From positions 653,976,001 to 654,040,000 of the forward strand of contig NW_027362763.1 of the NCBI RefSeq assembly GCF_046119375.1: DNA of 64,000 bases, written 5' to 3'. The translations under genes and the position numbers were made by a program. Positions 7,137-64,000 of the stretch are shown here, piece by piece (positions within the stretch are counted from its first letter, which is position 1; each line of letters begins with the position of its first letter). Source of the DNA: Phyllobates terribilis (lineage: Eukaryota). The notes below the pieces were generated by a model. It was not told the DNA's origin. It saw only the letters and a program-made list of their open reading frames with translations, and did no database searches.

Positions 7137-8159
7137 ATGAGACGGATTCTACAACCCACAGAAGTTGCTCAGGTAGTGCTGCTCATCCAGGATGGCACAT
7201 CAATGTGAGCTGTGGCAAGAAGGTTTGCTGTGTCTGTCAGCGTAGTGTCCAGAGGCTGGAAGCGCTACCAGGAGACAGGCCAGTACACCAGGAGACGTGG
7301 AGGGGTCCGTAGGAGGGAAACAACCCAGCAACAGGACCGCTACCTCTGCCTTTGTGCAACGAGGAACAGGAGGAGCACTGCCAGAGCCCTGCAAAATGAC
7401 CTCCAGCAGGCCACAAATGTGCATGTGTCTGCACAAACGGTTAGAAACCGACTCCATGAGGATGGTATGAGGGTCCGACGTCCACAGATGGGGGTTGTGC
7501 TCACAGCCCAACATCATGCAGGAAGCTTGGCATTTGCCACAGAACACCAGGATTGGCAAAGTCGCCACTGGCGCCCTGTGCTCTTCACAGATGAAAGCAG
7601 GTTCACACTGAGCACATGTGACAGACGTGACAGAGTCTGGAGACGCCGTGGAGAGCGATCTGCTGCCTGCAACATCCTTCAGCATGACTGGTTTGGCAGT
7701 GGGTCAGTAATGGTGTGGGGTGGCATTTCTTTGGAGGTCCGCACAGCCCTCCATGTGCTCGCCAGAGGTAGCCTGACTGCCATTAGGTACCGAGGTGAGA
7801 TCCTCAGACCCCTTGTGAGACCATATGCTGGTGCGGTTGGCCCTGGGTTCCTCCTAATGCAGGACAATGCCAGACCTCATGTGGCTGGAGTGTGTCAGCA
7901 GTTCTTGCAAGATGAAGGCATTGAAGCTATGGACTGGCCCGCTCGTTCACCCGACCTGAATCCAATTGAGCACATCTGGGACATCATGTCTCGCTCCATC
8001 CACCAACGATGGAACTCCATTGCACCACAGGAGTTGGCGGATGCTTTAGTCCGGGTCTGGGAGGAGATCCCACAGGAGACCATCCGCAGCCTCATCAGGA
8101 GCATGCCAAGGCATTGTAGGGAAGTCATACAGGCACGTGGAGGCCACACACAATACTCA
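7137..8159 (+). pseudogene. Tc1 transposase, 340 codons, with one premature TGA (7206-7208) and the native stop changed TGA>TCA
   Basis: [14 protein letters not shown]...VLFTDESRF...LMQDNARPH-(34)-SPDLNPIE...RGGHTQY, in frame from the ATG at 7137. Confidence 0.9.
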
Positions 8160-10152: not shown

Positions 10153-10570
10153 TTTTGACTTGTTTTAAGGACATTACATCAAAGTTGGATCAGCCTGTAG
10201 TGTGTTTTTCCACTTTAATTTTGGGGGTGACTCCAAATCCAGGCCTAAATTGGTTAATAAATGTGATTTCCATTGATGATTTTTGTGTGATTTTGTTGTC
10301 AGCACATTCAGCTTTCTACAGAACAAAGTATTCAATGAGAAGATTTCATTCATTCAGATCTAGGATGGGTTATTTGAGTGTTCCCTTTATTTTTTTGAGC
10401 AGTGCATTTGGTGCCATTGTCCTTAGACTGAATGACTTGGGTCACACGTTTGGGATCTCCTTCCACAAGCTTCTCACAATAGTTGGTCGGAATTTGGGCC
10501 GATTCTTCCTGACAAAACTGGTGGAACTGATCCAGGGTTGTAGGTCGCCTTGCTCGCACCGGCCTTTTCA

Positions 10571-26900: not shown

Positions 26901-27788
26901 GATTGGTCGCGGTGGCCGGCCGCGACCAATCAGCAGAGCGGCGTTTAAATTTGCCGCCCATCTCGCTGATTGGTCGCGGTGGCCGGCCGCGATTAATCAG
27001 CAGAGCGGCGTTTAAATTTGCCGGACATCTCGCTGATTGGTCGCGGTGGCCGGCCGCGACCAATCAGCAGAGCGGCGATTAAATTTGCCGCCCATCTCAC
27101 TCATTGGTCGCGGCCGGCCACCGCGACCAATCAGCAGAGCGGCGTTTAAATTTGCCGCCCATCTCGCTCATTGGTCGCGGTGGCCGGCCGCGATTAATCA
27201 GCAGAGCGGCGTTTAAATTTCCCGGCCATCTCGCTGATTGGTCGCAGTGGCCACCGTGACCAATCAGCAGAGCGGCGTTAAAATTTGCCACCCATCTCGC
27301 TAATTGGTCGCGGCCGGCCACCGCGACCAATCAGCGTCGTATTAGTGTGGGCCCGGGAGCGGCGCTGCTTGTGCGGCTCCGTATTAGCGAGGATCGGGGA
27401 GCGGCGCTGCCTGTGCGGCTCCTTCTGCTGCGAGAAGCCAGGAGATGAGCGGCTGCTCGCAGCAGAAGCATCCCGACCGGCGGTGCCGCTCCTCGGTCCT
27501 CCGTTCACACTTGTTGTCGGGAGAACAGCAGGCCAAGACGCTGATCTTCCGACGTTAGCCGCATGGAGGTCAGCGGCGCCGTCGGGGTAGTTGTGCTGCT
27601 AGCGCCGCTCATCTCCCCGCTGCATTGCCACTGACCTCGGTCCGCCAGATGAGCCGCTAACGGCCGCCATCTTTTTTCAGAAATCAAGCGGCGCTGATTG
27701 GCCGCTGCCGGACCAATGAGTGACGCGGGATTTCCAGGACAGACAGACAGACAGACAAATAGACGGGATAAGACAATTATATAGTAGA
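23912..27788 (-). mobile_element. Non-autonomous Helitron
   Basis: The minus strand starts TCTACTATATAA followed by (TGTC)n. It ends with hairpin CCCGAT-gcgttaga-ATCGGG, then CCACCAT-CTAG. Inserted between A and T with no TSD. Confidence 0.9.
23950..27335. repeat. 67-bp hairpin-forming satellite (~50 copies) within the Helitron
   Basis: Unit cgcgaccaatcagc-agagcggcgtttaaatttgccgcccatctc-gctgattggtcgcg-gccggccac. The ORF track shows repeats at 67/134-bp offsets. Confidence 0.96.
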
Positions 27789-27959: not shown

Positions 27960-28979
27960 TGCTTATACACCATACTCATTGGGTACTACTACCCAATGAG
28001 TTCAAGAAGTGACACACATATGTTTCAATAAAATATACATTTTATTAATAAATTCTAAAACCATATATTAAAACAGAAAGGAACTAAAAAGTACACTGGG
28101 GCACAATCATTAATGCATTCTATAGCATTGGGCACAATTGGACAATAGTCTAAAAGGGAGGTATAGATGTGCTTAAATAAAATTATATGCAAATATACCC
28201 GTCCTTCTACAATAGGAAATCACTGCATAAAGGGTAAATATCCTAGTTGTCACTGCTAGAAGTCTATACTGCAGATAATCACCATTGAGGGGAAAGGTCT
28301 CCACATATATAAATAAGAGCGATAATCAGATCACTAATAACATCAGTTCCTCATAAAGTACAAGACACAAGGTCTATATCCTGTATCAATTTAAGAAAAA
28401 TTACTCTCTATATTTATCAACCATATCCTCATACCATAATGGTGAGCATAGTAATGAGCGCGGCTATCTCCTCGCGCTGATAAGAGTAAATTGCTTATAC
28501 AAAGGACCAAGGTCAAAATGCTATTTACCTAGTGTACAGTAGTTGCTTAATGTAGATCTGCTCCTCAGTGTAGCCCCGCCGCGCACGTTTCGCCCTGTTT
28601 GCTTCTTCCGGGGGCGTGTCTATATTACGGAAGGTGGGTGTTTAAATACCTCAATGGTGATTATCTGCAGTATAGACTTCTAGCAGTGACAACTAGGATA
28701 TTTACCCTTTATGCAGTGATTTCCTATTGTAGAAGGACGGGTATATTTGCATATAATTTTATTTAAGCACATCTATACCTCCCTTTTAGACTATTGTCCA
28801 ATTGTGCCCAATGCTATAGAATGCATTAATGATTGTGCCCCAGTGTACTTTTTAGTTCCTTTCTGTTTTAATATATGGTTTTAGAATTTATTAATAAAAT
28901 GTATATTTTATTGAAACATATGTGTGTCACTTCTTGAACTCATTGGGTAGTAGTACCCAATGAGTATGGTGTATAAGCA
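27960..28979. repeat. 331-bp apparently perfect inverted repeat (27960-28290 / 28649-28979) around a 358-bp spacer; Penelope-like pLTR with inverted 3' copy
   Basis: The arms read as exact reverse complements by eye. The spacer carries tatttaaa and a hammerhead-like motif on the minus strand. ATTT lies on both outer sides. Confidence 0.88.
28572..28618 (-). ncRNA. Degenerate minimal hammerhead-like motif
   Basis: Minus strand cgcccc-CGGAAGA-a-gc(aaacagg)gc-GAAA-cgtgcgc-GGC-ggggc. There is a U>G change in the core and at the cleavage triplet. Confidence 0.5.
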
Positions 28980-43068: not shown

Positions 43069-43201
43069 TTAAGAAATAAGTACCACACCTAGACCCTTAA
43101 GATGGGTGTAGATAATATTAACTTTAGCCAATGAGATGTATATATGTTAATACCAGCACGTATGTAAAGATAACCTAAGCCAATTATATTATTACAATGT
43201 A

Positions 43202-44724
43202 CAGTACAGACCAAAAGTTTGGACACACCTTCTCATTTAAAGATTTTTCTGTATTTTCATGACTATGAAAATTGTACATTCACACTGAAGGCATCAAAAC
43301 TATGAATTACCACATGTGGAATTATATACTTAACAAAAAAGTGTGAAACAACTGAAAATATGTCTTATATTCTAGGTTCTTCACAGTAGCCACCTTTTGC
43401 TTTGATGACTGCTTTGCACAATCATGGCATTCTCTTGATGAGCTTCAAGAGGTAGTCACCGGAAATGGTTTTCACTTCACAGGTGTGCCCTGTCAGGTTT
43501 AATAAGTGGGATTTCTTGCCTTATAAATGTGGTTGGGACCATCAGTTGTGTTGTGCAGAAGTCAGGTGGATACACAGCTGATAGTCCTACTGAATAGACT
43601 GTTAGAATTTGTATTATGGCAAGAAAAAAGCAGCTAAGTAAAGAAAAACGAGTGGCCATCATTACTTTAAGAAATGAAGGTCAGTCACTCTGAAAAATTG
43701 GGCAAACTTTGAAAGTGTCCCCAAGTGCAGTTGCAAAAACCATCAAGCGCTACAAAGAAACTGGCTCACATGAGGACCACCCCAGGAAAGGAAGACCAAG
43801 AGTCACCTCTGCTTCTGAGGATAAGTTTATCCGAGTCACCAGCCTCAGAAATCGCAGGTTAACAGAAGCTCAGATTAGAGACCAGGTCAATGCCACACAG
43901 AGTTCTAGCAGCAGACACATCTCTACAACAACTGTTAAGAGGAGACTTTGTGCAGCAGGCTTTCTTGGTAAAATAGCTGCTAGGAAACCACTGCTAAGGA
44001 CAGGCAACAAGCAGAAGAGACTTGTTTGGGCTAAAGAACACAAGGAATGGACATTAGACCAGTGGAAATCTGTGCTTTGGTCTGATAAGTCCAAATTTGA
44101 GATCTTTGGTTCCAACCACCGTGTCTTTGTGCGACGCAGAAAAGGTGAACGGATGGACTCTACATGCCTGGTTCCCACCGTAAAGCATGGAGGAGGAGGT
44201 GTGATGGTGTGGGGGTGCTTTGCTGGTGACACTGTTGGGGATTTATTCAAAATTGAAGGCATACTGTACCAGCATGGCTACCACAGCATCTTGCAGCGGC
44301 ATGCTATTCCATCCGGTTTGCGTTTAGTTGGACCATCATTTATTTTTCAACAGGACAATGACCCCAGATTCACCTCCAGGCTGTGTAAGGGCAGAGTGAA
44401 GGCAAAAGGGCCAACAAGTGCTAAGCATCTCTGGGAACTCCTTCAAGATTGTTGGAAGACCATTTCCGGTGACTACCTCTTGAAGCTCATCAAGAAAATG
44501 CCAAGAGTGTGTAAAGCAGTCATCAAAGCAAAAGGTGGCTAATTTGAAGAACCTAGAATATAAGACATATTTTCAGTTGTTTCACACTTTTTTGTTAAGC
44601 ATATAATTACACGTGTTAATTCATAGTTTTGATGCCTTCAGTGTGAATGTACAATTTTCATAGTCATGAAAATACAGAAAAGTCTTTAAATGAGAAGGTG
44701 TGTCCAAACTTTTGGGCTGTACTG
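43202..44724 (+). mobile_element. Tc1 transposon with long TIRs
   Basis: TA|CAGTACAGACCAAAAGTTTGGACACACCTTCTCATT ... AATGAGAAGGTGTGTCCAAACTTTTGGGCTGTACTG|TA, with ~200-bp inverted ends. Confidence 0.96.
43616..44542 (+). pseudogene. Tc1 transposase with a premature TGA (43691) and an in-frame deletion of the SPDLNPIE segment
   Basis: MARKKQLSKEKR...VLWSDKSKF...KHGGGGVMVWGCF...FQQDNDP...SRLCKG|RVKAKGPTS. The catalytic Glu region is absent. Confidence 0.92.
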
Positions 44725-44798
44725 TACGTCCAAAAATGCCTATACAAGAGAGTGACTGTCAGGGAGCGATAGAGACGACACCGGCGAGGTCACACAAT

Positions 44799-44816
44799 AT
44801 CCCACCGCTGCCACCA
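44799..44816 (-). other. Perfect 18-nt tRNA-Leu primer-binding-site sequence lying inside the 3' LTR
   Basis: TGGTGGCAGCGGTGGGAT is complementary to the vertebrate tRNA-Leu(AAG/TAG) 3' end ...AUCCCACCGCUGCCACCA. Confidence 0.85.
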
Positions 44817-46769
44817 ATTTGTCAGGGCTTCACATCGACGACACCGGCGAGATCACACAATTTCTCACGGCTGCCGTCACTCTATCAGAATTGAACAGGG
44901 ATTCTCGCACACACGATCCCGATTACTCACTTCGTAGCTATCGGCAAGCGAGCAGAAAGCGTATGGCATACACACCTCCGGATTCCAACGCATGGAATAT
45001 GTGTATACGTCCCTGTGCGGTTACTGCCAGCTTCACGATGGCCCAATTATTATTAGTCGCTGCCACCACCAACCCAATTTGAAATATAATACAGGTAAGG
45101 TCGGACACCTGCTGGTAGCGTATGGCTTCGGGGGAGGGAGCGGTTACAGAACAAAGTAAACCGGACTATTAAATTTTATATTTAATCCAAAAGGGAGGAA
45201 GTGTTTATGAAAAATATACAAAAGGTTTTACAAATGGACATTTACAGTACAGGATATACAGTTACACAAAATAAACAGGATTAAAGACGAAACTTAGTTT
45301 AAAGATCGCAGAGACGACTCAGTATAGTTGGAGGGGAGCTCTTCTATGACCGTTCAGTGAAAGTGACTCCTAGCTTATGAAACATAAAACTCCTGGCAAT
45401 GAGCACTGACTCCCCCTTCGGCTGTGTCTTTCATGCCGAAGGGAGAGACCTGCCCACACACCCCTGTGATGACCTCACGTGGGCTGGGCTCCAGCTTTCA
45501 TATTTTTATTAGCATATCTGGTTTCTGCGATAATTTCTCACTGGTTGATCCCAGAAGCCCAAAAGGGATACCATATTTTTCATTATGAATTTACCTTTCT
45601 CCAGAGACCACACATGATACTGCTGCGGTCTGTCATTCTGTACTTTTGCGTTACCGCTTCCCGGAGGGGCGTACAGCTACGGAAAATTATCCATATTGTT
45701 CCTTGGCAGACTCTGCCACTAGAAATATGGGTCCCATGGAACTTCAGATATTCTATATTTTGCGCCAGTGCCAGCTAGACTAAATATTTCAGTTGAATTT
45801 TTCTGAATGTCTGGGAATACAACCTTATCACCTAGATGTAGATTTATCGCAAGTCTGTGTCACTGGAAAACACACTTGCATGTTAATTGGGTTTGCCACC
45901 TCTCTTGGTACTGGCCTCTGCCTCTTAGCTACTTCTCATGTGTGTGTTAATTTGCATAGAAGTCACTGGCCAAAGTGTCAGCTCATTAAATTGTCTGCTC
46001 TGACAAATGGTAGATAGAAGGGGGGATGAGGAGTTTCAGGGGGAGAGAGAAATCCTTAATATTTTAATAATATCTAGGATAAGGGAGAAGAAAGATTTTC
46101 AAAATTTACATGACATCTCCCCCTCTTTGAGGTAGAATAGGTGCCGATTTACCGATCACCCCTTAAGCCTACCTCGCGGCCCACCCTCACTGCTGATCCG
46201 ACAAGCCGTGGACCCAACTTGCCCACCCCTCTGACCAACTGGGGATCCAGCTTTCGGATCACCCTGACCGGTTTGGCGTACATTCTTCCCACCCCTCTGA
46301 CAGGCTATGGGTACCTTCTTCCCATACTCCTGACAGTGTGACACACCGTGCTTGTTTGTGAGGCCTACCTTCCCACACCTCATTGTTACCTGGGGGGCTG
46401 TACTAGCGATGGGGAAGTGGCGACCGGCCATGTCACAGTCCGCCGTGACACTCATCAGCGGCACGGGACCACTTCTCTTATGATCCCTGTGTTTCTCCTC
46501 ATCCTTTCCAGTTACCTCTGGAGCCGTGCTAATCATGTGGCAGCTATCCCCGACCATGTCACCATCTGGCGTGACACTGGTCATCTGCACGGGGCGACCT
46601 GCTTCCTGGTGTCCGTGCCTGCTCCCATAGCACTCATACTGGCTCGCTGTAGGAGATCCTCAGCAGCATCACCCCTCGGTGTGAGGTGGCTGAGTTCCCC
46701 TTTGCCACAACACACATTTTTTTTATGCATTACATTGACATTATTGACAGTGGCATTACATGACATATC

Positions 46770-48170
46770 AGATCTGGGGGGTTGTCTGGGATGTATTGGG
46801 CCACCGACCGTCCCAGATCAGTTCCCAATAGTACATTAGTGGGGAGATTCTTTGACACCCCCACTTCTCTCAACCGCCTCCCCGCATCCTAGTCCAGGAA
46901 AAGACGGCCCATCAGCATGGGATGGCGAATACCCCCAAACCCGGTGACAGTCAGGGTCTTCCCAGGAAGGAGTTCTTCTGGTAACATGAACTCAGGGCAG
47001 ATGAGAGTACGTTCTGCGCCAGTGTCCTTGAGGCCAACAGTAACGGTGTTGTCCACAGTAACCGGTTGTAAGTTCTCATGGGCCCTGCCGACCACCCCAC
47101 CCACAAAAAGAATGGCTGCAGTAGGCCCTGGGGCCTCAGGTGTGGTGTCCATCTTCTGCCTCTCCGGGCAGACAAGGCTGATGTGACCCGTTTGGTCACA
47201 AGTATAACACTTACGTGAGTCAAATGCAGGCAGGGTGCTGGAAGATGGGCCAGAACCCGCTGAGGGCCGGCTGGCTGGAACACTAGGGGTGGCTGTACAC
47301 TTACCCCCTTTCCAGCTGATGGCGACTGACTTCTGCACCTCTGGTGTGCGGTTGGCCTCATAGGCATCCACGATCTGGGCTGCTTTGGCGGCCTCCTTTG
47401 GCTTCCGGTCCAGCACAAACTGTCGCACTTCCACTGGGCAAAGACGAAGAAACTGATCCTTCACCATCAGATCCTTCAGGTCCTTGAAGGTGGTGACGGA
47501 CAATCCCTGGACCCACTGCTCAAAGTTGGTCCTGAGCCCGTCCACCAAATCACTGTAGCTGTCGTGTGGTCCACGCTGGAGGGCTCCGAATTTTTTCCGG
47601 TAAACCTCCGGAGTCAGCTGGTACTTTTTTATCAGGGCCTGCTTGATGGCCCCATAGTCTCCATTCTGGTTTTGAGGGAGAGAAGCAAACACTTACAGAG
47701 GTTTTCCTCTGAGCCCTGGAGTTAAGTACCTGACCCACTGGTCTTCAGGCAGCTGGTACTGTCTGCAGGCTTTTTCAAATTCTCACAGAAATATGTCCAA
47801 GTCCCCGTTTTTCCCCATTACAGGAAAATGCTCAGGACAGGGTATAAAGCAGTTGGCACTGTTGGACTCACGGGTCTGTGTGGAGGATGGCTCCTTCTGA
47901 ATCCAGGCTAGCTCCAGCTGGTACAGACGCTCCACTTGAGCCTGGCTGGCAATCATAGGTGGGACCCCGCAGCAGCACCATCCGGGTCTTGGCTAGCCGC
48001 CCCTTCATCAGGGATCTGCTGTTGGACTGGCCTTGCGGCACCTTGCAACAGTTCCGCAATCAGTTGGGCCTTGGTTTTGCCCGTGGGGTCAATCTGCCTC
48101 AGCTCACAGAGGGCAGTGATAGTGTCCTTTAACTGCTGGTGATACCAGGGCTCTCCATGCGTAGCCATCA
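46770..48170 (-). pseudogene. gag: Gypsy gag-protease remnant (SCAN-like domain, CCHC knuckle, aspartic protease)
   Basis: MMATHGEPWYHQQLKD...; DYGAIKQALIKKYQLTPEVYRKKF...DLMVKDQFL...VRQFVLDRKPK; CYTCDQTGHISLVC; LKDTGAERTLI. Frameshifted. Confidence 0.9.
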
Positions 48171-48369
48171 TTGCCAAATAAAAGATAGAACAGAAAAACA
48201 AGAGAAGGGAGGGGATGCAACTGCTACACGTATAGTAATGTCCCAGATTTAAAAAAAATTAAAACACGGAGTCCGGTTCCTTAAAACTTTGCACAGAATT
48301 CTCGCAAGAACCGTGCAAGTTTTCAGCGACAGGAATGATTGCTCAATCCAGCCACTGATGTTCTGTAAT

Positions 48370-48388
48370 ATCCCACTGCTTGCCATCA
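48370..48388 (-). other. Canonical-position PBS (degenerate) 3 nt downstream of the 5' LTR
   Basis: TGATGGCAAGCAGTGGGAT, a decayed version of the tRNA-Leu PBS. Confidence 0.75.
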
Positions 48389-48982
48389 ATTTGTCAGGGA
48401 ACGACAGTGACGAAAACGGGGAGATTACACAATATCTCACCGCTGCCGTCACTCTGTCAGGATTGAGCAGGGATTCTCGCACACACGATCCCGATAACTC
48501 ACTACTTAGGTATTGGCAGGCTAGCAGAAAGCGTATGGCATACACACCTCCGGATTCCAATGCATAGAATATGTGTATACGCCCCCCATACGGTTACTGC
48601 CACCTTCACGATAGCCCAATTATTATTAGTCGCTGCCACCACCAAACCAATTTGAAATATAATAAAGGTCGGGTCAGACGCCTGCGTTCTGGTAGCGTAT
48701 GGCTTCGGGGGAGGGAACGGTTACAGAACAAAAGAAACAGGACTATTCAATTTTATTTAATCCAAAATGGAGGCAGTGTTTAGGAAAAATATACAAAAGG
48801 TTTCACAAATGTACATTTACAGTACAGAATATACACAAAATAAACAGGATTAAAGAAGAAACTTACTATAAAGATCGCAGAGACGACTCAGTATATTTCG
48901 AGGGGAGCTCTCCTATGACCATTCATCGAACGTGACCCCTTGCTTATGAAACGTATACTCCCGGCAATGAGCACTGAACCCC

Positions 48983-49428
48983 TGTCACGGGTGTATCAGA
49001 GGAGAAAGACAGTCCCCCTGCATTTGGTTGCAGGAGATCTCTATATTTGGCATTACAGACATCTTCTTAGATGAGAGGCTGTCTCTAGGACCTAATGGCT
49101 ATTTCCGACTGATAATTAGCTCCCTTGCCTGGGTGTATATATACACCTGATGTGTCTGAGAGGGAGGTGCCGGCGATATTCATTTCTACTTGTGAAGGCT
49201 TAGCAAGAGCAGTACTTCGTCCACTCTGGAGCTTGAGGCCAAGTTCGCATTTGTCTGGAGTCGTCTAAAGCTAAGCACTCTTCCCGTTTGTCTACCCTTG
49301 TTGTCTATAGAGTTTAGTGGAGATCGACTAATGCTCATGTCCTCCCATCCCTAGCCATACGCCAGGGAAAGACAGGGCGAGGCATGAGTGCGGCGATTGC
49401 TGAAGAGGCAAGTTGAGAAAGGGTGACA
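48983..49428. mobile_element. Probable unrelated solo LTR nested in the Gypsy 5' LTR
   Basis: TGTCAC...GTGACA termini and a TATA-like gtatatatacac. The block is absent from the 3' LTR. No TSD is visible. Confidence 0.6.
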
Positions 49429-50254
49429 CTAGACCAGACTAGGAGGATGACCTCACGTGAGCTGGGCTCCAGCCTTCATATTTTTATTAGCATATCTGGT
49501 TTCTGCAATAATTTCTCGCTGGTTGATCGCAGAATCCCGAAAGTGATACCATACTTTTCATCATGAATTTACTCTTCTCCAGAGTCAACACATGATACAG
49601 CTGTGGTCTGTCAATCTGTACTTTTGCGTTACCGCACCCCAGAGGGGAGTTCAGCTATGGAAAATTATCCATATTGTTCCTTGGCAGACCCTGCCACTAA
49701 AAATATGGGTCGCATTATTATCGGACGTACGGAACTTCAAATATTCCATATTTTGCGCCGGTGTCAGCCAGACTAAAGATTTCTGTTGAATTCTTCTGAA
49801 GTTCTGGGAATACAACCTTCTCATCTAGATGTAGATTTATCGCAGGTCTGTGTCACTGGAAGACACACTTGCATGTTAATTGGGTTTGCCACCTCTCTTA
49901 GTACTGGCCTCTGCCTCTTAGCCACTTCTCATGTGTGTGTTAATTTGCATATAAGCCACAGGCCAAAGTGTCAGCTCTTTTGACTGTCAGCTCTGACAAA
50001 TGGTAGATAGGAGGGGGGGGGGGTGAGGGGTTTCAGGGGGAGAGGGAAATCCTTAATATTTTATTAATATCTAGGACAGGGGAAAAGAAAGATTTTCAAT
50101 ATTTCCATGACAGTGACCATGATATAATAAATGGAGATCTGTCCTAATATTAAGTGCCTCACAGTGGTTCTTCCCTTGTACAAGTACTTGGACTATGTAA
50201 CATTGATTTGGAGCAGACACATTGTCTCAGAAAGTCTCACATTACATGGCGACA

Positions 50255-53200
50255 ATACTGTGGATAATGATCAGTACTGTCTGTATATAGTATATGAGGT
50301 AATAATAGTGATATACGGGGTCCAGTACCTGTGTATAGTGATCAGTACTGTCTGTATATAGTATATGAGGTAATAATAGTGATATACAGGGTCCAGTACC
50401 TGTGTATAGTGATCAGTGCTGTCTGTATACAGTATATGAGATAATAATGGTGATATACAGGGTCCAGTACCTGTGTATAGTGATCAGTACTGTCTGTATA
50501 TAGTATATGAGGTAATAATGGTGGTATACAGGGTCCAGTACCTGTGTATAGTGATCAGTACTGTCTGTATATAGTATATGAGATAATAATGGTGGTATAC
50601 AGGGTCCAGTACCTGTGTATAGTGATCAGTACTGTCTGTATATAGTATATGAGGTAATAATGGTGATATACAGGGTCCAGTACCTGTGTATAGTGATCAG
50701 TACTGTCTGTATATAGTATATGAGATAATAATGGTGGTATACAGCGTCCAGTACCTGTGTATAGTGATCAGTGCTGTCTGTATATAGTATATGAGGTAAT
50801 AATGGTGGTATACAGGGTCCAGTACCTGTGTATAGTGATCAGTACTGTCTGTATATAGTATATGAGGTAATAATGGTGTTATACAGGGTCCAGTACCTAT
50901 GTATAGAGATCAGTGCTCTCTGTATATAGTATATGAGGTAATAATGGTGATATACAGGGTCCAGTACCTGTGTATAGTGATCAGTGCTGTCTGTTTACAG
51001 TACATGAGGTAATAATAGTGATATACAGGGTCCAGTACCTGTGTATAGTAATCAGTGCTGTCTGTATACAGTATATGAGATAATAATGGTGGTATACAGG
51101 GACAAGTACCTGTGTATAGTAATCAGTGCTGTCTGTATACAGTATATGAGATAATAATGGTGGTATACAGGGACAAGTACCTGTGTATAGTGATCAGTGC
51201 TGTCGTATACAGGATATGAGGTAATAATGGTAATATACAGGGTCCAGTACCTGTGTATAGTGATCAGTGCTGTCTGTATACAGGATATGAGGTAATAATG
51301 GTGGTATACGGGGTCCAGTACCTGTGTATAGTGATCAGTGCTGTCTGTATACAGGATATGAGGTAATAATGGTGATATACAGGGTCCAGTACCTGTGTAT
51401 AGTGATCAGTACTGTCTGTATACAGTATATGAGGTAATAATGGTGATATACAGGGTCCAGTACCTGTGTATAGTGATCAGTGCTGTCTGTTTACAGTATA
51501 TGAGGTAATAATAGTGATATAAAGGGTCCAATACCTGTGTATAGTGATCAGCGCTGTCTGTACACAGTATATGAGATAATAATGGTGGTATACAGGGTCC
51601 AGTACCTGTGTATAGTGATCAGTGATGTCTGTATATAGTATATGAGGTAATAATGGTGGTATACGGGGTCCAGTACCTGTGTATAGTGATCAGTGCTGTC
51701 TGTATACAGTATATGAGGTAATAATGGTGGTATACAGGGTAGAGTACCTGTGTATAGTGATCAGTACTGTCTGTATACAGTATATGAGGTAATAATGGTG
51801 ATATACAGGGTCCAGTACCTGTGTATAATGATCAGTACTGTCTGTATATAGTATATGAGGTAATAATAGTGATATACGGGGTCCAGTACCTGTGTATAGT
51901 GATCAGTACTGTCTGTATATAGTATATGAGGTAATAATAGTGATATACAGGGTCCAGTACCTGTGCATAGTGATCAGTGCTGTCTGTATACAGTATATGA
52001 GGTAATAATGGTGATATACAGAGTCCAATACCTGAGTATAGTGATCAGTACTGTCTGTATATAGTATATGAGGTAATAATGGTGATATACAGGGTCCAGT
52101 ACCTGTGTATAGTGATCAGTGCTGTCTGTATATAGTATATGAGGTAATAATGGTGGTGTAAAGCGGTCCAGTACCTGTGGATAATGATCAGTACGGTCTG
52201 TATATAGTATATGAGGTAATAATGGTGATATACAGGGTCCAGTACCTGTGTATAGTGATCAGTACTGTCTGTATACAGTATATGAGGTAATAATTGTGGT
52301 ATACAGGGTGCAGTACCTGTGTATAGTGATCAGTGCTGTCTGTATATAGTATATGAGGTAATAATGGTGGTGTAAAGGGGTCCAGTACCTGTGTATAGTG
52401 ATCAGTACTGTCTGTATACAGTATATGAGGTAATAATGGTGATATACAGGGTCCAGTACCTATGTATAGAGATCAGTGCTGTCTGTATATAGTATATGAG
52501 GTAATAATGGTGGTATACAGGGTCCAGTACCTGTGTATAGTGATCAGTACTGTCTGTATATAGTATATGAGATAATAATGGTGGTATACAGGGTCCAGTA
52601 CCTGTGTATAGTGATCAGTACTGTCTGTATATAGTATATGAGGTAATAATGGTGATATACAGGGTCCAGTACCTGTGTATAGTGATCAGTACTGTCTGTA
52701 TATAGTATATGAGATAATAATGGTGGTATACAGCGTCCAGTACCTGTGTATAGTGATCAGTGCTGTCTGTATATAGTATATGAGGTAATAATGGTGGTAT
52801 ACAGGGTCCAGTACCTGTGTATAGTAATCAGTGCTGTCTGTATACAGTATATGAGATAATAATGGTGGTATACAGGGACAAGTACCTGTGTATAGTAATC
52901 AGTGCTGTCTGTATACAGTATATGAGATAATAATGGTGGTATACAGGGACAAGTACCTGTGTATAGTGATCAGTGCTGTCTGTATACAGGATATGAGGTA
53001 ATAATGGTAATATACAGGGTCCAGTACCTGTGTATAGTGATCAGTGCTGTCTGTATACAGGATATGAGGTAATAATGGTGGTATACGGGGTCCAGTACCT
53101 GTGTATAGTGATCAGTGCTGTCTGTATACAGGATATGAGGTAATAATGGTGATATACAGGGTCCAGTACCTGTGTATAGTGATCAGTACTGTCTGTATAC

Positions 53201-56200
53201 AGTATATGAGGTAATAATGGTGATATACAGGGTCCAGTACCTGTGTATAGTGATCAGTGCTGTCTGTTTACAGTATATGAGGTAATAATAGTGATATAAA
53301 GGGTCCAATACCTGTGTATAGTGATCAGCGCTGTCTGTACACAGTATATGAGATAATAATGGTGGTATACAGGGTCCAGTACCTGTGTATAGTGATCAGT
53401 GATGTCTGTATATAGCATATGAGGTAATAATGGTGGTATACGGGGTCCAGTACCTGTGTATAGTGATCAGTGCTGTCTGTATACAGTATATGAGGTAATA
53501 ATGGTGGTATACAGGGTCCAGTACCTGTGTATAGTGATCAGTACTGTCTGTATACAGTATATGAGGTAATAATGGTGATATACAGGGTCCAGTACCTGTG
53601 TATAATGATCAGTACTGTCTGTATATAGTATATGAGGTAATAATAGTGATATACGGGGTCCAGTACCTGTGTATAGTGATCAGTACTGTCTGTATATAGT
53701 ATATGAGGTAATAATAGTGATATACAGGGTCCAGTACCTGTGCATAGTGATCAGTGCTGTCTGTATACAGTATATGAGGTAATAATGGTGATATACAGCG
53801 TCCAATACCTGAGTATAGTGATCAGTACTGTCTGTATATAGTATATGAGGTAATAATGGTGATATACAGGGTCCAGTACCTGTGTATAGTGATCAGTGCT
53901 GTCTGTATATAGTATATGAGGTAATAATGGTGGTGTAAAGCGGTCCAGTACCTGTGGATAATGATCAGTACGGTCTGTATATAGTATATGAGGTAATAAT
54001 GGTGATATACAGGGTCCAGTACCTGTGTATAGTGATCAGTACTGTCTGTATACAGTATATGAGGTAATAATGGTGGTATACAGGGTGCAGTACCTGTGTA
54101 TAGTGATCAGTGCTGTCTGTATATAGTATATGAGGTAATAATGGTGGTGTAAAGGGGTCCAGTACCTGTGTATAGTGATCAGTACTGTCTGTATACAGTA
54201 TATGAGGTAATAATGGTGATATACAGGGTCCAGTACCTGTGTATAGTAATCAGTGCTGTCTGTATACAGTATATGAGATAATAATGGTGGTATACAGGGA
54301 CAAGTACCTGTGTATAGTAATCAGTGCTGTCTGTATACAGTATATGAGATAATAATGGTGGTATACAGGGACAAGTACCTGTGTATAGTGATCAGTGCTG
54401 TCTGTATACAGGATATGAGGTAATAATGGTAATATACAGGGTCCAGTACCTGTGTATAGTGATCAGTGCTGTCTGTATACAGGATATGAGGTAATAATGG
54501 TGGTATACGGGGTCCAGTACCTGTGTATAGTGATCAGTGCTGTCTGTATACAGGATATGAGGTAATAATGGTGATATACAGGGTCCAGTACCTGTGTATA
54601 GTGATCAGTACTGTCTGTATACAGTATATGAGGTAATAATGGTGATATACAGGGTCCAGTACCTGTGTATAGTGATCAGTGCTGTCTGTTTACAGTATAT
54701 GAGGTAATAATAGTGATATAAAGGGTCCAGTACCTGTGTATAGTGATCAGCGCTGTCTGTACACAGTATATGAGATAATAATGGTGGTATACAGGGTCCA
54801 GTACCTGTGTATAGTGATAAGTGCTGTCTGTATATAGTATATGAGGTAATAATGGTGGTATACGGGGTCCAGTACCTGTGTATAGTGATCAGTGCTGTCT
54901 GTATACAGTATATGAGGTAATAATGGTGGTATACAGGGTCCAGTACCTGTGTATAGTGATCAGTACTGTCTGTATACAGTATATGAGGTAATAATGGTGA
55001 TATACAGGGTCCAGTACCTGTGTATAATGATCAGTACTGTCTGTATATAGTATATGAGGTAATAATAGTGATATACGGGGTCCAGTACCTGTGTATAGTG
55101 ATCAGTACTGTCTGTATATAGTATATGAGGTAATAATAGTGATATACAGGGTCCAGTACCTGTGCATAGTGATCAGTGCTGTCTGTATACAGTATATGAG
55201 GTAATAATGGTGATATACAGCGTCCAATACCTGAGTATAGTGATCAGTACTGTCTGTATATAGTATATGAGGTAATAATGGTGATATACAGGGTCCAGTA
55301 CCTGTGTATAGTGATCAGTGCTGTCTGTATATAGTATATGAGGTAATAATGGTGGTGTAAAGGGGTCCAGTACCTGTGGATAATGATCAGTACGGTCTGT
55401 ATATAGTATATGAGGTAATAATGGTGATATACAGGGTCCAGTACCTGTGTATAGTGATCAGTACTGTCTGTATACAGTATATGAGGTAATAATGGTGATA
55501 TACAGGGTCCAGTACCTGTGTATAGTGATCAGTGCTGTCCGTATATAGTATATGAGGTAATAATGGTGTTATACGGGGTCCAGTACCTGTGGATAATGAT
55601 CAGTACGGTCTGTATATAGTATATGAGGTAATAATGGTGATATACAGGGTCCAGTACCTGTGTATAGTGATCAGTACTGTCTGTATACAGTATATGAGGT
55701 AATAATGGTGATATACAGGGTCCAGTACCTGTGTATAATGATCAGTACTGTCTGTATATAGTGTATGAGGTAATAATGGTGGTATACAGGGTCCAGTACC
55801 TGTGTATAGTGATCATGCTGTCTGTATACAGTATATGAGGTAATAATGGTGATATACAGGGTCCAGTACCTGTGTATAGTGATCAGTACTGTCTGTATAT
55901 AGTATATGAGGTAATAATAGTGATATACAGGGTCCAGTACCTGTGTATAGTGATCAGTGCTGTCTGTATACAGTATATGAGATAATAATGGTGGTATACA
56001 GGGTCCAGTACCTGTGTATAGTGATCAGTGCTGTCTGTATATAGTATATGAGGTAATAATGGTGGTATACAGGGTCCAGTACCTGTGTATAGTGATCAGT
56101 GCTGCCTGTATACAGTATATGAGGTAATAATGTTGGTATACGGGGTCCAGTACCTGTGTATAGTGATCAGTACTGTCTGTATACAGTATATGAGGTAATA

Positions 56201-59200
56201 ATGGTGATATACAGGGTCCAGTACCTGTGTATAGTGATCAGTGCTGTCTCTATATAGTATATGAGGTAATAATGGTGGTATACAGGGTCCAGTACCTGTG
56301 TATAGTGATCAGTGCTGCCTGTATACAGTATATGAGGTAATAATGTTGGTATACGGGGTCCAGTACCTGTGTATAGTGATCAGTACTGTCTGTATACAGT
56401 ATATGAGGTAATAATGGTGATATACAGGGTCCAGTACCTGTGTATAGTGATCAGTGCTGTCGGTTTACAGTATATGAGGTAATAATGGTGATATACAGGG
56501 TCCAGTACCTGTGTATAGTGATCAGTACGGTCTGTATACAGTATATGAGGTAATAATGGTGATATACAGGGTCCAGTACCTGTGTATAGTGATCAGTGCT
56601 GTCGGTATATAGAATATGAGGTAATAATGGTGGTATACAGGGTCCAGTAACTGTGTATAGAGATCAGTGCTGCCTGTATACAGTATATGAGGTAATAATG
56701 TTGGTATACGGGGTCCAGTACCTGTGTATAGTGATCAGTACTGTCTGTATACAGTATATGAGGTAATAATGGTGATCTACAGGATCCAGTACCTGTGTAT
56801 AGTGATCAGTGCTGTCTGTTTACAGTATATGAGGTAATAATGGTGATATACCGTGTCCAGTACCTGTGTATAGTGATCAGTATTGTCTGTATACAGTATA
56901 TGAGGTAATAATGGTGATATACAGGGTCCAGTACCTGTGTATAGTGATCAGTATTGTCTGTATACAGTATATGAGGTAATAATGGTGGTATACAGGGTCC
57001 AGTACCTGTGTATAGTGATCAGTGCTGCCTGTATACAGTATATGAGGTAATAATGTTGGTATACGGGGTCCAGTACCTGTGTATAGTGATCAGTACTGTC
57101 TGTATACAGTATATGAGGTAATAATGGTGATATACAGGGTCCAGTACCTGTGTATAGTGATCAGTGCTGTCTGTTTACAGTATATGATGTAATAATGGTG
57201 ATATACAGGGTCCAGTACCTGTGTATAGTGATCAGTACGGTCTGTATACAGTATATGAGGTAATAATGGTGATATACAGGGTCCAGTACCTGTGTATAGT
57301 GATCAGTGCTGTCTGTATATAGAATATGAGGTAATAATGGTGGTATACAGGGTCCAGTAACTGTGTATAGAGATCAGTGCTACCTGTATACAGTATATGA
57401 GGTAATAATGGTGATATACAGGGTCCAGTACCTGTGTATAGTGATCAGTATTGTCTGTATACAGTATATGAGGTAATAATGGAGAGATACAGGGTCCAGT
57501 ACCTGTGTATAGTGATCAGTACTGTCTGTATACAGTATATGAGGTAATAATGTTGGTATACGGGGTCCAGTACCTGTGTATAGTGATCAGTGCTGTCTGT
57601 ATATAGTATATGAGGTAATACTAGTGGTATACAGGGTCCAGTACCTGTGTATAGTGATCAGTGCTGCCTGTATACAGTATATGAGGTAATAATGTTGGTA
57701 TACGGGGTCCAGTACCTGTGTATAGTGATCAGTACTGTCTGTATACAGTATATGAGGTAATAATGGTGATATACAGCGTCCAGTACCTGTGTATAGTGAT
57801 CAGTGTTGTCTGTTTACAGTATATGAAGAAATAATGGTGGTATACAGGGTCCAGTACCTGTGTATAGTGATCAGTACAGTCTGTATACAGTATATGAGGT
57901 AATAATGGTGGTATACAGGGTCCAGTACCTGTGTATAGTGATCAGTACTGTCTGTATACAGTATATGAGATAATAATGGTGGTATACAGGGTCCAGTACC
58001 TGTGTATAGTGATCAGTGCTGTCTGTATACAGTATATGAGATAATAATGGTGGTGTACAGGGTCCAGTACCTGTGTATAGTGATCAGTACTGTCTGTATA
58101 CAGTATATGAGGTAATAATGGTGGTATACAGGGTCCAGTACCTGTGTATAGTGATCAGTACTGTCTGTATACAGTATATGAGGTAATAATGGTGGTATAC
58201 AGGGTCCAGTACCTGTGTATAGTGATAAGTGCTGTCTGTATACAGTATATGAGGTAATAATGGTGATAAACAGGGTCCAGTACCTGTGTATAGTGATCAG
58301 TACTGTCTGTATACAGTATATGAGGTAATAATGGTGGTATACAGGGTCCAGTACCTGTATATAGTGATCAGTACTGTCTGTATACAGTATATGAGGTAAT
58401 AATGGTGATATACAGGGTCCAGTACCTGTGTATAGTGATCAGTGCTGTCTGTATACAGTATATGAGATAATAATGGTGATATACAGGGTCCAGTACCTGT
58501 ATATAGTGATCAGTACTGTCTGTATACAGTATATGAGGTAATAATGGTGATATACAGGGTCCAGTACCTGTGTATAGTGATCAGTGCTGTCTGTATACAG
58601 GATATGAGATAATAATGGTGGTATACATGGTCCAGTACCTGTGTATAGTGATCAGTACTGTCAGTATATAGTATATGAGGTAATAATGGTGATATACAGG
58701 GTCCAGTACCTGTGTATAGTGATCAGTGCTGTCTTTATATAGTATATGAGGCAATAATGGTGGTATACAGGGTCCAGTACCTGTGTACAGCGATCAGTGC
58801 TGTCTTTATACAGTATATGAGGTAATAATGGTAATATACAGGGTCCAGTACCTGTGTATAGTGATCAGTACAGTCTGTATACAGTATATGAGGTAATAAT
58901 GGTGATATACAGGGTCCAGTACCTGTGTATAGTGATCAGTGCTGTCTGTATACAGTATATGAGGTAATAATGGTGATATACAGGGTCCAGTACCTGTGTA
59001 TAGTGATCAGTACTGTCTGTATACAGTATATGAGGTAATAATGGTGGTATACAGGGTCCAGTACCTGTGTATAGTGATCAGTGCTGTCTGTATACAGTAT
59101 ATGAGGTAATAATGGTGATATACAGGGTCCAGTACCTGTGTATAGTGATCAGTGCTGTCTGTATATAGTATATCAGGTAATAATGGTGATATACAGGGTC

Positions 59201-62200
59201 CAGTACCTGTGTATAGTGATCAGTGCTGTCTGTATAAAGTAGATGAGGTAATAATGGTAATGTACAGGGTCCAGTACCTGTGTATAGTGATCAGTGCTGT
59301 TTGTATATTGGATATGAGGTAATAATGGTGATATACAGCGTCCAGTACATGTGTATAGTGATCAGTGCTGCCTGTATACAGTATATGAGGTAATAAGGGT
59401 GATATACAGGGTCCAGTACCTGTGTATAGTGATCAGTGCTGTCTGTATACAGGATATGAGGTAATAATGGTGGTATACATGGTCCAGTACCTGTGTATAG
59501 TGATCAGTACTGTCTGTATATAGTATATGAGGTAATAATAGTGATATAAGGGGTCCAGTACCTGTGTATAGTGATCAGTACTGTCTGTATATAGTATATG
59601 AGGTAATAATGGTGGTATACAGAGTCCAGTACCTGTGTATAGTGATCAGTGCTGTCGGTATACAGTATATGAGATAATAATGGTGATATACAGGGTCCAG
59701 TACCTGTGTATAGTGATCAGTACTGTCTGTATACAATATATGAGGTAATAATGGTGATATACAGGGTCCAGTACCTGTGTATAGTGATCAGTACTGTCTG
59801 TATACAGGATATGAGGAAATAATGGTGGTATACAGTTAAGTACCTGTGTATAGTGATCAGTACTGTCTGTATACAGTATATGAGGTAATAATGGTGATAT
59901 ACAGGGTCCAGTACCTGTGTATAGTGATCAGTGCTGTCTTTATACAGTATATGAGGTAATAATGGTGGTATACAGGGTCCAGTACCTGTGTATAGTGATC
60001 AGTACTGTCTGTATACAGTATATGAGGTAATAATGGTGGTATACAGGGTCCAGTACCTGTGTATAGTGGTCAGTGCTGTCTGTATACAGTATATGAGGAA
60101 ATAATGGTGGTATACAGGGTCCAGTACCTGTGTATAGTGATCAGTACTCTCTGTATACAGTATATGAGGTAATAATGGTGGTATACAGGGTCCAGTACCT
60201 GTGTATAGTGATCAGTGCTGTCTGTATACAGGATATGAGGTAATAATGGTGATATACAGGGTCCAGTACCTGTGTATAATGATCAGTGCTGTCTATATAC
60301 AGGATATGAGGTAACAATGGTGATATACAGGGTCCAGTAGCTGTGTATAGTGATCAGTGCTGTGTGTATACAGTATATGAGGTAATAATGGTGATATACA
60401 GGGTCCAGTACCTGTGTATAGTGATTAGTACAGTCTGTATACAGTATATGAGGTAAAAATAGTGATATACAGGGTCCAGTACCTGTGTATAGTGATCAGT
60501 GCTGTCTGTATACAGTATATGAGGTAATAATGGTGATATACAGGGTCCAGGACCTGTGTATAGTGATCAGTGCTGTCTGTATACAGTATATGAGATAATA
60601 ATGGTGGTATACAGGGTCCAGTACCTGTGTATAGTGATCAGTGCTGTCTGTATACAGTATATGAGGTAATAATGGTGATATACAGGGTCCAGTACCTGTG
60701 TATAGTGATCAGTGCTGTCTGTATACAGGATATGAGGTAATAATGGTGGTATACAGGGTCCAGTACCTGTGTATAGTGATCAGTGCTGTGTGTATACAGT
60801 ATATGAGGTAATAATGGTGATATACAGGGTCCAGTACCTGTGTATAGTGATTAGTACAGTCTGTATACAGTATATGAGGTAATAATGGTGGTATACAGGG
60901 TCCAGTACCTGTGTATAGTGATCAGTGCTGTGTGTATACAGTATATGAGGTAATAATGGTGATATACAGGGTCCAGTACCTGTGTATAGTGATTAGTACA
61001 GTCTGTATACAGTATATGAGGTAATAATGGTGGTATACAGGGTCCAGTACCTGTGTATAGTGATTAGTACAGTCTGTATACAGTATATGAGGTAATAATG
61101 GTGGTATACAGGGTCCAGTACCTGTGTATAGTGATCAGTGCTGTCTATATACAGTATATGAGGTAATAATGGTGGTACACAGGGTCCAGTACCTGTGTAT
61201 AGTGATCAGTGCTGTCTGTATAAAGGATATGAGGTAATAATGGTGGTATACAGGGTCCAGTACCTGTGTATAGTGATCAGTGCTGTGTGTATACAGTTTA
61301 TGAGGTAATAATGGTGATATACAGGGTCCAGTACCTGTGTATAGTGATCAGTGCTGTCTTTATACAGTATATGAGGTAATAATGGTGGTATACAGGGTCC
61401 AGTACCTGTGTATAGTGATCAGTGCTGTCTTTATACAGTATATGAGGTAATAATGGTGGTATACAGGGTCCAGTACCTGTGTATAGTGATCAGTGTTGTC
61501 TGTTTACAGTATATGAAGAAATAATGGTGGTATACAGGGTCCAGTACCTGTGTATAGTGATCAGTACAGTCTGTATACAGTATATGAGGTAATAATGGTG
61601 GTATACAGGGTCCAGTACCTGTGTATAGTGATCAGTACTGTCTGTATACAGTATATGAGATAATAATGGTGGTATACAGGGTCCAGTACCTGTGTATAGT
61701 GATCAGTGCTGTCTGTATACAGTATATGAGATAATAATGGTGGTGTACAGGGTCCAGTACCTGTGTATAGTGATCAGTACTGTCTGTATACAGTATATGA
61801 GGTAATAATGGTGGTATACAGGGTCCAGTACCTGTGTATAGTGATCAGTACTGTCTGTATACAGTATATGAGGTAATAATGGTGGTATACAGGGTCCAGT
61901 ACCTGTGTATAGTGATAAGTGCTGTCTGTATACAGTATATGAGGTAATAATGGTGATAAACAGGGTCCAGTACCTGTGTATAGTGATCAGTACTGTCTGT
62001 ATACAGTATATGAGGTAATAATGGTGGTATACAGGGTCCAGTACCTGTATATAGTGATCAGTACTGTCTGTATACAGTATATGAGGTAATAATGGTGATA
62101 TACAGGGTCCAGTACCTGTGTATAGTGATCAGTGCTGTCTGTATACAGTATATGAGATAATAATGGTGATATACAGGGTCCAGTACCTGTATATAGTGAT

Positions 62201-64000
62201 CAGTACTGTCTGTATACAGTATATGAGGTAATAATGGTGATATACAGGGTCCAGTACCTGTGTATAGTGATCAGTGCTGTCTGTATACAGGATATGAGAT
62301 AATAATGGTGGTATACATGGTCCAGTACCTGTGTATAGTGATCAGTACTGTCAGTATATAGTATATGAGGTAATAATGGTGATATACAGGGTCCAGTACC
62401 TGTGTATAGTGATCAGTGCTGTCTTTATATAGTATATGAGGCAATAATGGTGGTATACAGGGTCCAGTACCTGTGTACAGCGATCAGTGCTGTCTTTATA
62501 CAGTATATGAGGTAATAATGGTAATATACAGGGTCCAGTACCTGTGTATAGTGATCAGTACAGTCTGTATACAGTATATGAGGTAATAATGGTGATATAC
62601 AGGGTCCAGTACCTGTGTATAGTGATCAGTGCTGTCTGTATACAGTATATGAGGTAATAATGGTGATATACAGGGTCCAGTACCTGTGTATAGTGATCAG
62701 TACTGTCTGTATACAGTATATGAGGTAATAATGGTGGTATACAGGGTCCAGTACCTGTGTATAGTGATCAGTGCTGTCTGTATACAGTATATGAGGTAAT
62801 AATGGTGATATACAGGGTCCAGTACCTGTGTATAGTGATCAGTGCTGTCTGTATATAGTATATCAGGTAATAATGGTGATATACAGGGTCCAGTACCTGT
62901 GTATAGTGATCAGTGCTGTCTGTATAAAGTAGATGAGGTAATAATGGTAATGTACAGGGTCCAGTACCTGTGTATAGTGATCAGTGCTGTTTGTATATTG
63001 GATATGAGGTAATAATGGTGATATACAGCGTCCAGTACATGTGTATAGTGATCAGTGCTGCCTGTATACAGTATATGAGGTAATAAGGGTGATATACAGG
63101 GTCCAGTACCTGTGTATAGTGATCAGTGCTGTCTGTATACAGGATATGAGGTAATAATGGTGGTATACATGGTCCAGTACCTGTGTATAGTGATCAGTAC
63201 TGTCTGTATATAGTATATGAGGTAATAATAGTGATATAAGGGGTCCAGTACCTGTGTATAGTGATCAGTACTGTCTGTATATAGTATATGAGGTAATAAT
63301 GGTGGTATACAGAGTCCAGTACCTGTGTATAGTGATCAGTGCTGTCGGTATACAGTATATGAGATAATAATGGTGATATACAGGGTCCAGTACCTGTGTA
63401 TAGTGATCAGTACTGTCTGTATACAATATATGAGGTAATAATGGTGATATACAGGGTCCAGTACCTGTGTATAGTGATCAGTACTGTCTGTATACAGGAT
63501 ATGAGGAAATAATGGTGGTATACAGTTAAGTACCTGTGTATAGTGATCAGTACTGTCTGTATACAGTATATGAGGTAATAATGGTGATATACAGGGTCCA
63601 GTACCTGTGTATAGTGATCAGTGCTGTCTTTATACAGTATATGAGGTAATAATGGTGGTATACAGGGTCCAGTACCTGTGTATAGTGATCAGTACTGTCT
63701 GTATACAGTATATGAGGTAATAATGGTGGTATACAGGGTCCAGTACCTGTGTATAGTGGTCAGTGCTGTCTGTATACAGTATATGAGGAAATAATGGTGG
63801 TATACAGGGTCCAGTACCTGTGTATAGTGATCAGTACTGTCTGTATACAGTATATGAGGTAATAATGGTGGTATACAGGGTCCAGTACCTGTGTATAGTG
63901 ATCAGTGCTGTCTGTATACAGGATATGAGGTAATAATGGTGATATACAGGGTCCAGTACCTGTGTATAATGATCAGTGCTGTCTATATACAGGATATGAG
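50255..64000. repeat. 71-bp satellite, ~193 copies, continuing beyond the window
   Basis: Unit gtgatcagtactgtctgtatatagtatatgaggtaataatggtgatatacagggtccagtacctgtgtata. The period of 71 was checked at many positions. The ORF track is empty over the array. Confidence 0.99.

Follow-up and report, generated by a model that had tools for sequence, protein, structure and literature searches.

Primer-site units at the LTR ends of a leucine-primed Gypsy element in Phyllobates terribilis

A Gypsy-type LTR element of the frog Phyllobates terribilis carries copies of its own primer-binding site (PBS) inside the ends of its LTRs, within units of 63 bp, of which one (M1) closes the 5′ LTR and two (inner, M1; outer, M2) close the 3′ LTR. 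The element lies in the window analysed here, a stretch of 64,000 nucleotides to which all positions refer. The outer unit begins as the true LTR-end/PBS junction does and goes on as a recopied LTR end; its likeliest origin, to which we give a probability of about 0.5, is slippage from the true PBS to the internal site. Such a slip likely happened once, and at the level of the family the first unit probably goes back to an earlier capture of this kind that has been inherited. These observations suggest that the LTRs of such elements can lengthen at their ends by primer-site capture. A PBS is usually taken to lie outside the LTR and to occur once, and LTR ends and PBS are used as fixed landmarks. 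Here, in a high-copy vertebrate family, the position of the LTR end varies and primer sites are found inside the LTR.

The element and its terminal units

The element (Table 1) has the marks of a Ty3/Gypsy LTR element, namely TG...CA LTRs that both start with TGTCA, a short target-site duplication (TSD), a decayed Leu PBS 3 nt past the 5′ LTR, a polypurine tract (PPT) before the 3′ LTR, and a Gag with a SCAN-like capsid domain (PF02023, E 3.2e-10). Aligned over 1287 bases, the LTRs show 133 differences (66 transitions and 67 transversions), a divergence of 10%, and they are also set apart by one unrelated block. No reverse transcriptase or integrase was found behind the gag-protease region, where about 630 bp lead to the PPT and the longest frame is without a Pfam hit. 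The element is an old, non-autonomous, gag-protease-only Gypsy copy, lacking the pol (reverse transcriptase, RNase H and integrase) of an autonomous one. The Gag search returned 18 relatives, all from dendrobatid frogs, the best being 82% identical, and the SCAN-like domain is present in 18 of 18; the same search of viral contigs returned 0 loci. A related Gag is also encoded at 8 of 18 loci of other elements with the same Leu PBS. Judged by its Gag, the element appears to be Gmr1-like. The Gmr1 clade has a characteristic gene order of pol, whereas the likeness of this pol-less copy to the clade is the SCAN-like capsid domain. Gmr1-like Ty3/Gypsy retrotransposons are named as the source of the SCAN domain in the available text of PMC3406341.

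Several other features were observed. The unrelated LTR blocks (48978-49445 against 45410-45467, the latter containing a short inverted repeat) may go back to two independent indels at an 8-mer that both LTRs share, or else to a pair of parental templates. One Gag relative (P0010, 55% identical) is annotated as glycine N-methyltransferase in a public frog annotation, probably from a mis-joined gene model. Rfam gave 0 matches at E up to 1 over 44600-50300. A Tc1-like DNA transposon (43199-44727; 275-bp inverted ends 95% alike; PF01498 and PF13565 transposase domains) ends 24 bp from the TSD of the element, and a 71-bp satellite array of about 194 copies (50258-64000) starts 140 bp from the 5′ LTR. 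Farther away are a different 71-bp array (8087-10153), a 67-bp array (23975-27335), and a 358-bp core enclosed by a pair of perfect inverted repeats of 331 bp (27960-28979), the last likely a very young non-autonomous DNA transposon.

Table 1. Features of the element, its terminal units and its primer-site sequences
Feature	Position	Strand	Remark
LTR element	50112 to 44757	minus	GTCAC on either side
TSD GTCAC, 5′ side	50113-50117	minus
5′ LTR, 1721 bp, TG...CA	48392-50112	minus	one unit at end
About 470-bp block, 5′ LTR only	48978-49445	minus
Candidate poly(A) signal AATAAA	48752-48757	minus	units inferred in U5 from its position
PBS-like word, 11 nt, farther up LTR	48631-48641	minus	twin at 45058-45068
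PBS-like word, 8 nt, 5′ LTR	48597-48604	minus
Older LTR end, CTGACA, 5′ LTR	48455-48460	minus
5′ LTR unit, M1	48392-48454	minus	internal site 48434-48451
Anti-PBS arm of 5′ M1	48408-48425	minus	16/18 pair; 48/5000 shuffles
3-nt spacer and decayed true PBS	48370-48391	minus
gag-protease region	46751-47920	minus	SCAN-like capsid domain; stop codons within
PPT	46116-46128	minus
3′ LTR, 1359 bp	44757-46115	minus	two units at end
58-bp block, 3′ LTR	45410-45467	minus	same place as about 470-bp block of 5′ LTR
Older LTR end, CTGATA, 3′ LTR	44883-44888	minus	private change at one base, where the other letter makes up 92-97% of family depth
Inner 3′ unit, M1	44820-44882	minus	internal site 44862-44879
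Anti-PBS arm of inner 3′ M1	44836-44853	minus	17/18 pair with intact site; 1/5000 shuffles
Outer 3′ unit, M2	44757-44819	minus	true-junction-type spacer, intact 18-nt site, 42-nt LTR end
Intact site of M2	44799-44816	minus	exact 18-nt complement of tRNA-Leu(AAG) 3′ end including CCA
Anti-PBS arm of M2	44773-44790	minus	15/18 pair with intact site; 229/5000 shuffles as good
TSD GTCAC, adjoining outer unit	44752-44756	minus

The initial annotation had placed the three units on the sequence and divided each into 3 + 18 + 36 + 6 nt, and both the coordinates and this gapless layout are borne out. The units differ pairwise at 12, 13 and 15 of 63 sites, with 19 of 63 positions variable among the three, and their likeness within the window gives BLASTN E values of 1.5e-12 and 3.4e-08. 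CpG decay was considered as the cause of the tail differences and rejected, as only 3 of the 12 differences between the two M1 copies are transitions. Within the 64-kb window, six sites lie within 5 mismatches of the 18-mer; three are the unit sites, at 0, 3 and 5 mismatches, and the remaining three, located elsewhere, have 5 mismatches each. The perfect tRNA-Leu PBS reported in M2 equals the first 18 bases of a tRNA-Leu(AAG) probe, a mammalian and not a frog reference, in the available text of PMC7997516, and departs from it at base 19. The true PBS (48370-48388) is decayed as described, by two substitutions and one extra base. ARAGORN called no tRNA in the window; on 120 viral-contig loci with a 15-nt tRNA-sense motif it called one, as Met, which does not name the primer.

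The M1 copies are each preceded by the older LTR end, CTGACA or CTGATA, as had been noted, and this older end is a real LTR end in relatives. All units lie about 300 nt past the AATAAA and, from its position, are likely in U5. The PBS-like words farther up the 5′ LTR were equalled in 1-2 of 300 shuffles, and the single such word near the 3′ LTR end in 11-47 of 300. The 36 nt before CTGACA in M1 have no global likeness to those at the old end (437-645 of 1000 shuffles as good); the best local match covers 11 of 13 nt and is borderline, at P about 0.05 (97-118 of 2000 shuffles; four of six comparisons far weaker). M1 may be a copy of the old end, and M2 appears to be a copy of the end that precedes it.

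LTR ends in relatives and the origin of the outer unit

In its head, M2 is unlike either M1 copy at positions 1, 3, 6, 7 and 18, and at 5/5 of these diagnostic sites it agrees with the true LTR/PBS junction or with the tRNA complement. Its tail is M1-type. M2 is therefore a junction of the true PBS region with the internal site, as had been proposed, with the crossover somewhere within 24 shared bases. As expected of strong-stop DNA, the spacer and the 18-nt tRNA complement come right after the U5 end and stop at base 18. At its other end M2 touches an intact GTCAC, so that this end either was the integration end or replaced it exactly, which agrees with the earlier idea of a new integrable end. 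The tails of the inner 3′ and 5′ units differ at 10 of 42 sites and that of the outer unit from each of them at 8 of 42; they are about equidistant, and thus the duplication is about as old as the insertion. Variable sites in the tails number 14, against 6.5 expected from the LTR average (P = 0.007), or P = 0.21 if the cluster at 47-55 is treated as one event.

Contigs from four public DNA runs (X1-X4; three samples, two studies) were aligned to 44710-45260 at 80% likeness, giving 4278, 4775, 3681 and 4465 aligned contigs per run. The matches listed are the best 15 of 91 joints, 12 of 218 joint fills, 24 of 1105 loose ends and 32 of 17505 pieces, and contig depth, which is not copy number, was used for presence only. 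Among the matches listed, 43, 35 and 40 contigs (X2, X3 and X4) depart from the reference at 44896, with the LTR-end word and then mixed letters (agreement about 0.5), and are read as LTRs ending at the old end. At least two contigs among the matches listed cover 44820-45007 and stop exactly at the M1 end (X1 record 1, X4 record 25), beyond which they run on unlike for about 200 and 860 letters; these would be one-unit LTR ends. A joint that leads from 44826 to 44897 across 7 intervening letters, a net of 63, recurs in 4/4 runs (shorter side 46, 64, 52 and 64 letters) and appears to show the old end followed directly by one intact-type unit. Its reading as unit-free LTRs was ruled out, since the shorter side reaches 64 letters.

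Furthermore, two back-joints in X4, among the matches listed, have periods of 53 bp (depth 48.5) and 52 bp (depth 38.8) between two PBS copies, and in the tail of the 53-bp unit 15 of 18 PBS bases are pairable by eye. The PBS with the next 10 bases of the unit is very common (105-112 contigs per run at 44789), and depth over the last bases of M2 drops to 54-126. The first unit, present in both LTRs, is covered by 31-57 contigs per run at 44862-44895. On the evidence of these contigs, unit number and length appear to vary in the family and the first unit to be inherited, and capture would be a family trait without a fixed 63-bp ratchet. The initial annotation had envisaged growth in exact 63-bp steps, which the 52- and 53-bp units of relatives contradict. 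It had also asked whether the family is fixed at two units, and the one-unit LTR ends and old-end LTRs of relatives indicate that it is not.

Two further arguments drawn earlier from M2 did not hold. Its perfect site had been taken as tRNA-copied, yet 18 bases would remain unchanged with probability 0.39 at 5% change per copy, and relatives have an intact-type internal site; as between tRNA and genomic PBS as template, the 3 nt past the site are the same at all junctions. The outer unit had also been said to resemble the 5′ allele more than the adjacent unit, hinting at an intermolecular switch. The likeness stands in part, as the M2 tail groups with the 5′ unit at 48, 52, 53 and 55 but sides with the adjacent unit at 29, 35, 39 and 41. 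Among the best 40 of 152 difference rows, with the M2 row omitted (39), the letter of the 3′ LTR is rare in the family at 15 of 23 listed LTR-LTR difference sites, unit positions 21 and 55 being among the 15, with position 14 at 72-87% and positions 35, 47 and 48 mixed. At 14, 21 and 55, a letter other than that of the inner 3′ unit makes up 72-98% of depth. The likeness of the outer and 5′ units there is thus a shared common state around a family-rare letter in the inner unit, and does not argue for a switch between molecules.

Under the slip favoured here, the parent lineage would have had one unit per LTR, as the copies show, and this unit directly repeats the PBS region, at a distance of 63 nt upstream of the real PBS. 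A PPT-primed plus strand would, as is established for such strands, copy U5, the spacer and 18 nt of PBS. After removal of the primer, the free PBS end may have annealed again, now with the complement of the internal site on the same template or on one packaged alongside it, and been extended to the end of the template, so that slip and recopying of the LTR end would precede integration. The product would bear the ordinary LTR terminus and 5-bp TSD visible here, and the 5′ LTR would come from another strong-stop molecule in which one unit was retained.

One copy alone cannot separate a gain in the 3′ LTR from a loss in the 5′ LTR, and the same one-plus-two layout is exactly what would come from a parent with two U5 units, left by an earlier inherited slip, if the 5′ LTR of this copy lost the outer one, either in plus-strand transfer via the intact internal site or by later deletion between the 63-bp repeats. 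Consistently, the 5′ unit is hybrid-like, M1 in its head and M2 at 48, 52, 53 and 55, tail variation is above the LTR average, and the back-joints give PBS-unit-PBS arrangements in many copies. Two events are required, however, one-unit ends exist, and at position 55 the inner 3′ unit has a letter seldom seen in the family (at most 9-15% of depth). Among the matches listed (best 32 of 17505 pieces), no piece or contig runs through both M1 and M2, the longest M1 pieces stopping at 44820-44855, although a 31-nt repeat at the M1/M2 junction would break spanning contigs regardless. We therefore regard such a parent as somewhat unlikely, if the strongest competitor of the slip.

Repair of a break or replication after insertion could also have copied the 5′ LTR end and PBS into the 3′ LTR, re-annealing on the internal site without reverse transcription. 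This needs only LTR homology and the 24-nt repeat of the PBS region, both of which are there, would leave the TSD intact, and predicts the true-junction spacer. It also predicts that the inner 3′ unit is nearer to the 5′ unit than the outer one is, against the observed 10 and 8 of 42, and LTR divergence is even along U5 (9.3, 9.6 and 10.0%), without a conversion tract; the event would fit only soon after insertion, and we consider it distinctly improbable. The exact 63-bp period might suggest a plain tandem duplication of M1, in which case the M1 spacer and its three site changes would be expected instead of the true-junction state at 5/5 sites. For a separate small insertion, which had been named as a possible refutation, a second TSD is absent: M2 stands directly after CTGACA and is followed by the element's own GTCAC. 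These last two origins have very little probability. Slip, two-unit parent and later conversion have one common cause, the direct repeat of the PBS region 63 nt inside U5.

A ratchet that lengthens LTRs had been suggested on the basis of M2. The progeny of LTR elements take U5 from the 5′ LTR, and because the units are likely in U5, a unit confined to the 3′ LTR is likely not inherited, which argues against a ratchet in this copy.

A predicted hairpin over the internal site

Beyond the initial annotation, every unit has at positions 30-47 a stretch complementary to the PBS, termed here the anti-PBS arm. The 5′ unit has a predicted fold of -27.2 kcal/mol (z -4.2; 0 of 200 shuffles as good) and is also predicted to fold as DNA on both strands (z -3.4), whereas the two 3′ units fold more weakly and are not significant alone (22 and 21 of 200 shuffles). 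A hairpin around the upstream 11-nt word is not significant (55 and 26 of 200 shuffles). Three site changes are common to both M1 copies and thus older than the insertion, and 3/3 of them turn a G:U into a Watson-Crick pair; the chance of this, calculated after it had been noticed, is 0.001 over all substitutions and 0.012-0.025 over transitions. With the same changes, pairing with the primer is predicted to be weaker, at -24.4 instead of -39.0 kcal/mol. The bias toward Watson-Crick pairs argues that the decay of the inner site is not random and, together with the anti-PBS arm, suggests that the captured site is locked away in a hairpin.

Palindrome correction in DNA can perfect inverted repeats, and the inner-site changes may reflect either such correction or selection for locking. 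The first unit likely persists through a U5 tail that is complementary to the PBS and is predicted to fold over the captured site, as this fold would block tRNA priming at the internal site and leave the true PBS free; priming at the internal site would cut the unit off again. The predicted hairpin would thereby offer a way to keep a second site without mis-priming.

Other animals and comparison with known systems

Among 18 loci from other animals with TGACA-NNN-PBS, 6 have an anti-PBS arm within 120 nt upstream (at most 6 of 300 shuffles) and 0 downstream at this threshold; grouped by eye, these loci form 11 families, 3 with such an arm. From these sequences, the arm appears not to be special to the frog. 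In one of these 3, unrelated to the frog family (L126, L133 and L134), U5 has a 10-nt PBS-like word 83-91 nt upstream of the PBS that is predicted to fold with the anti-PBS arm into a hairpin of 12 bp (whole-region z -1.6 and -1.9), and a second short arm is predicted to pair with the true PBS. Separately, an unrelated animal contig (L130:629-760) has TGACA-3 nt-PBS and, 106 nt later, a second TGACA-3 nt-PBS; the pair recurs about 1.4-1.8 kb on (2058-2083, 2473-2498), and the first site has a 22-nt match to the tRNA-Leu complement. It is possibly an independent PBS-end module or a tRNA-derived repeat. The patterns PBS-gap-TGACA and TGACA-NNN-PBS gave 0 and 0 matches in viral contigs, a frog-specific 23-mer 0 in metagenome contigs, and TGACA-NNN-PBS 0 in bacterial genomes.

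A broader and tentative reading, which we hold to be possible rather than probable, is that Leu-primed Gypsy elements lengthen their LTRs at the U5 end through serial capture of the primer site, with a new integrable end made by every slip. The anti-PBS arm would lock the site and also act as a switch by which the true PBS is freed or masked, and the upstream PBS-like words would be relics of earlier rounds. If serial capture is true, the hairpin words of L126, L133 and L134 and the PBS-end-PBS repeat of L130 would be independent cases. Should the slip model be right, the frequency with which PBS-bearing strong-stop DNA reaches the chromosome is on record in frog genomes, and the mode of plus-strand transfer in animal Gypsy elements becomes countable from sequence alone. 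Such elements would be annotated wrongly by tools that take the first PBS as the mark of the LTR end.

In retroviruses, U5-IR and U5-leader stems pair the U5 end with the PBS region, as would the predicted fold here, but the complementarity of the present arm extends over the whole PBS, and the arm has a choice of two partners, the internal copy and the true site. These stems are named in the available text of PMC3601003. tRNA fragments that target the PBS act in silencing, according to the accessible part of PMC7472051, and the predicted hairpin would bear on this. In Ty3 and Drosophila gypsy, primer sites that are bipartite or additional bind to other regions of the tRNA, at the RNA's 3′ end (PMC5371799 and PMC1635307, in the text available); these are likewise second tRNA-binding sites in Ty3/Gypsy elements, whereas here the second site, 63 nt upstream of the first, consists of the same 18 nt. 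In the literature listings and abstracts searched, in which older virology is thinly covered, no report was found of an LTR end with a duplicate PBS within it.

In HIV-1 and MLV proviruses from repair-deficient cells, PBS remnants of 2-15 nt abut host DNA, often with abnormal short repeats, as excerpted from PMC2797772. These resemble the present case in having PBS sequence after the 3′ LTR of an integrated element, but here the site is complete, at 18 nt, and 42 nt of LTR end and then a normal 5-bp TSD come after it, with no PBS remnant at host DNA. The portion of PMC5371799 available describes plus-strand strong-stop DNA of Ty3 that bears the PBS, accumulates and is not transferred, and together with that of PMC7472051 it describes such plus strands without transfer in both Ty3 and Ty1, with a PPT recycling model. 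As far as these sources go, the yeast elements supply the proposed substrate, which copies U5, the spacer and the tRNA 3′ end; there it is a by-product, whereas here such an end appears to be fixed in a genomic copy and re-extended to an integrable terminus. The arrangement is a variant of known strand-transfer slips, to which a family-level trait and a predicted structural lock are added.
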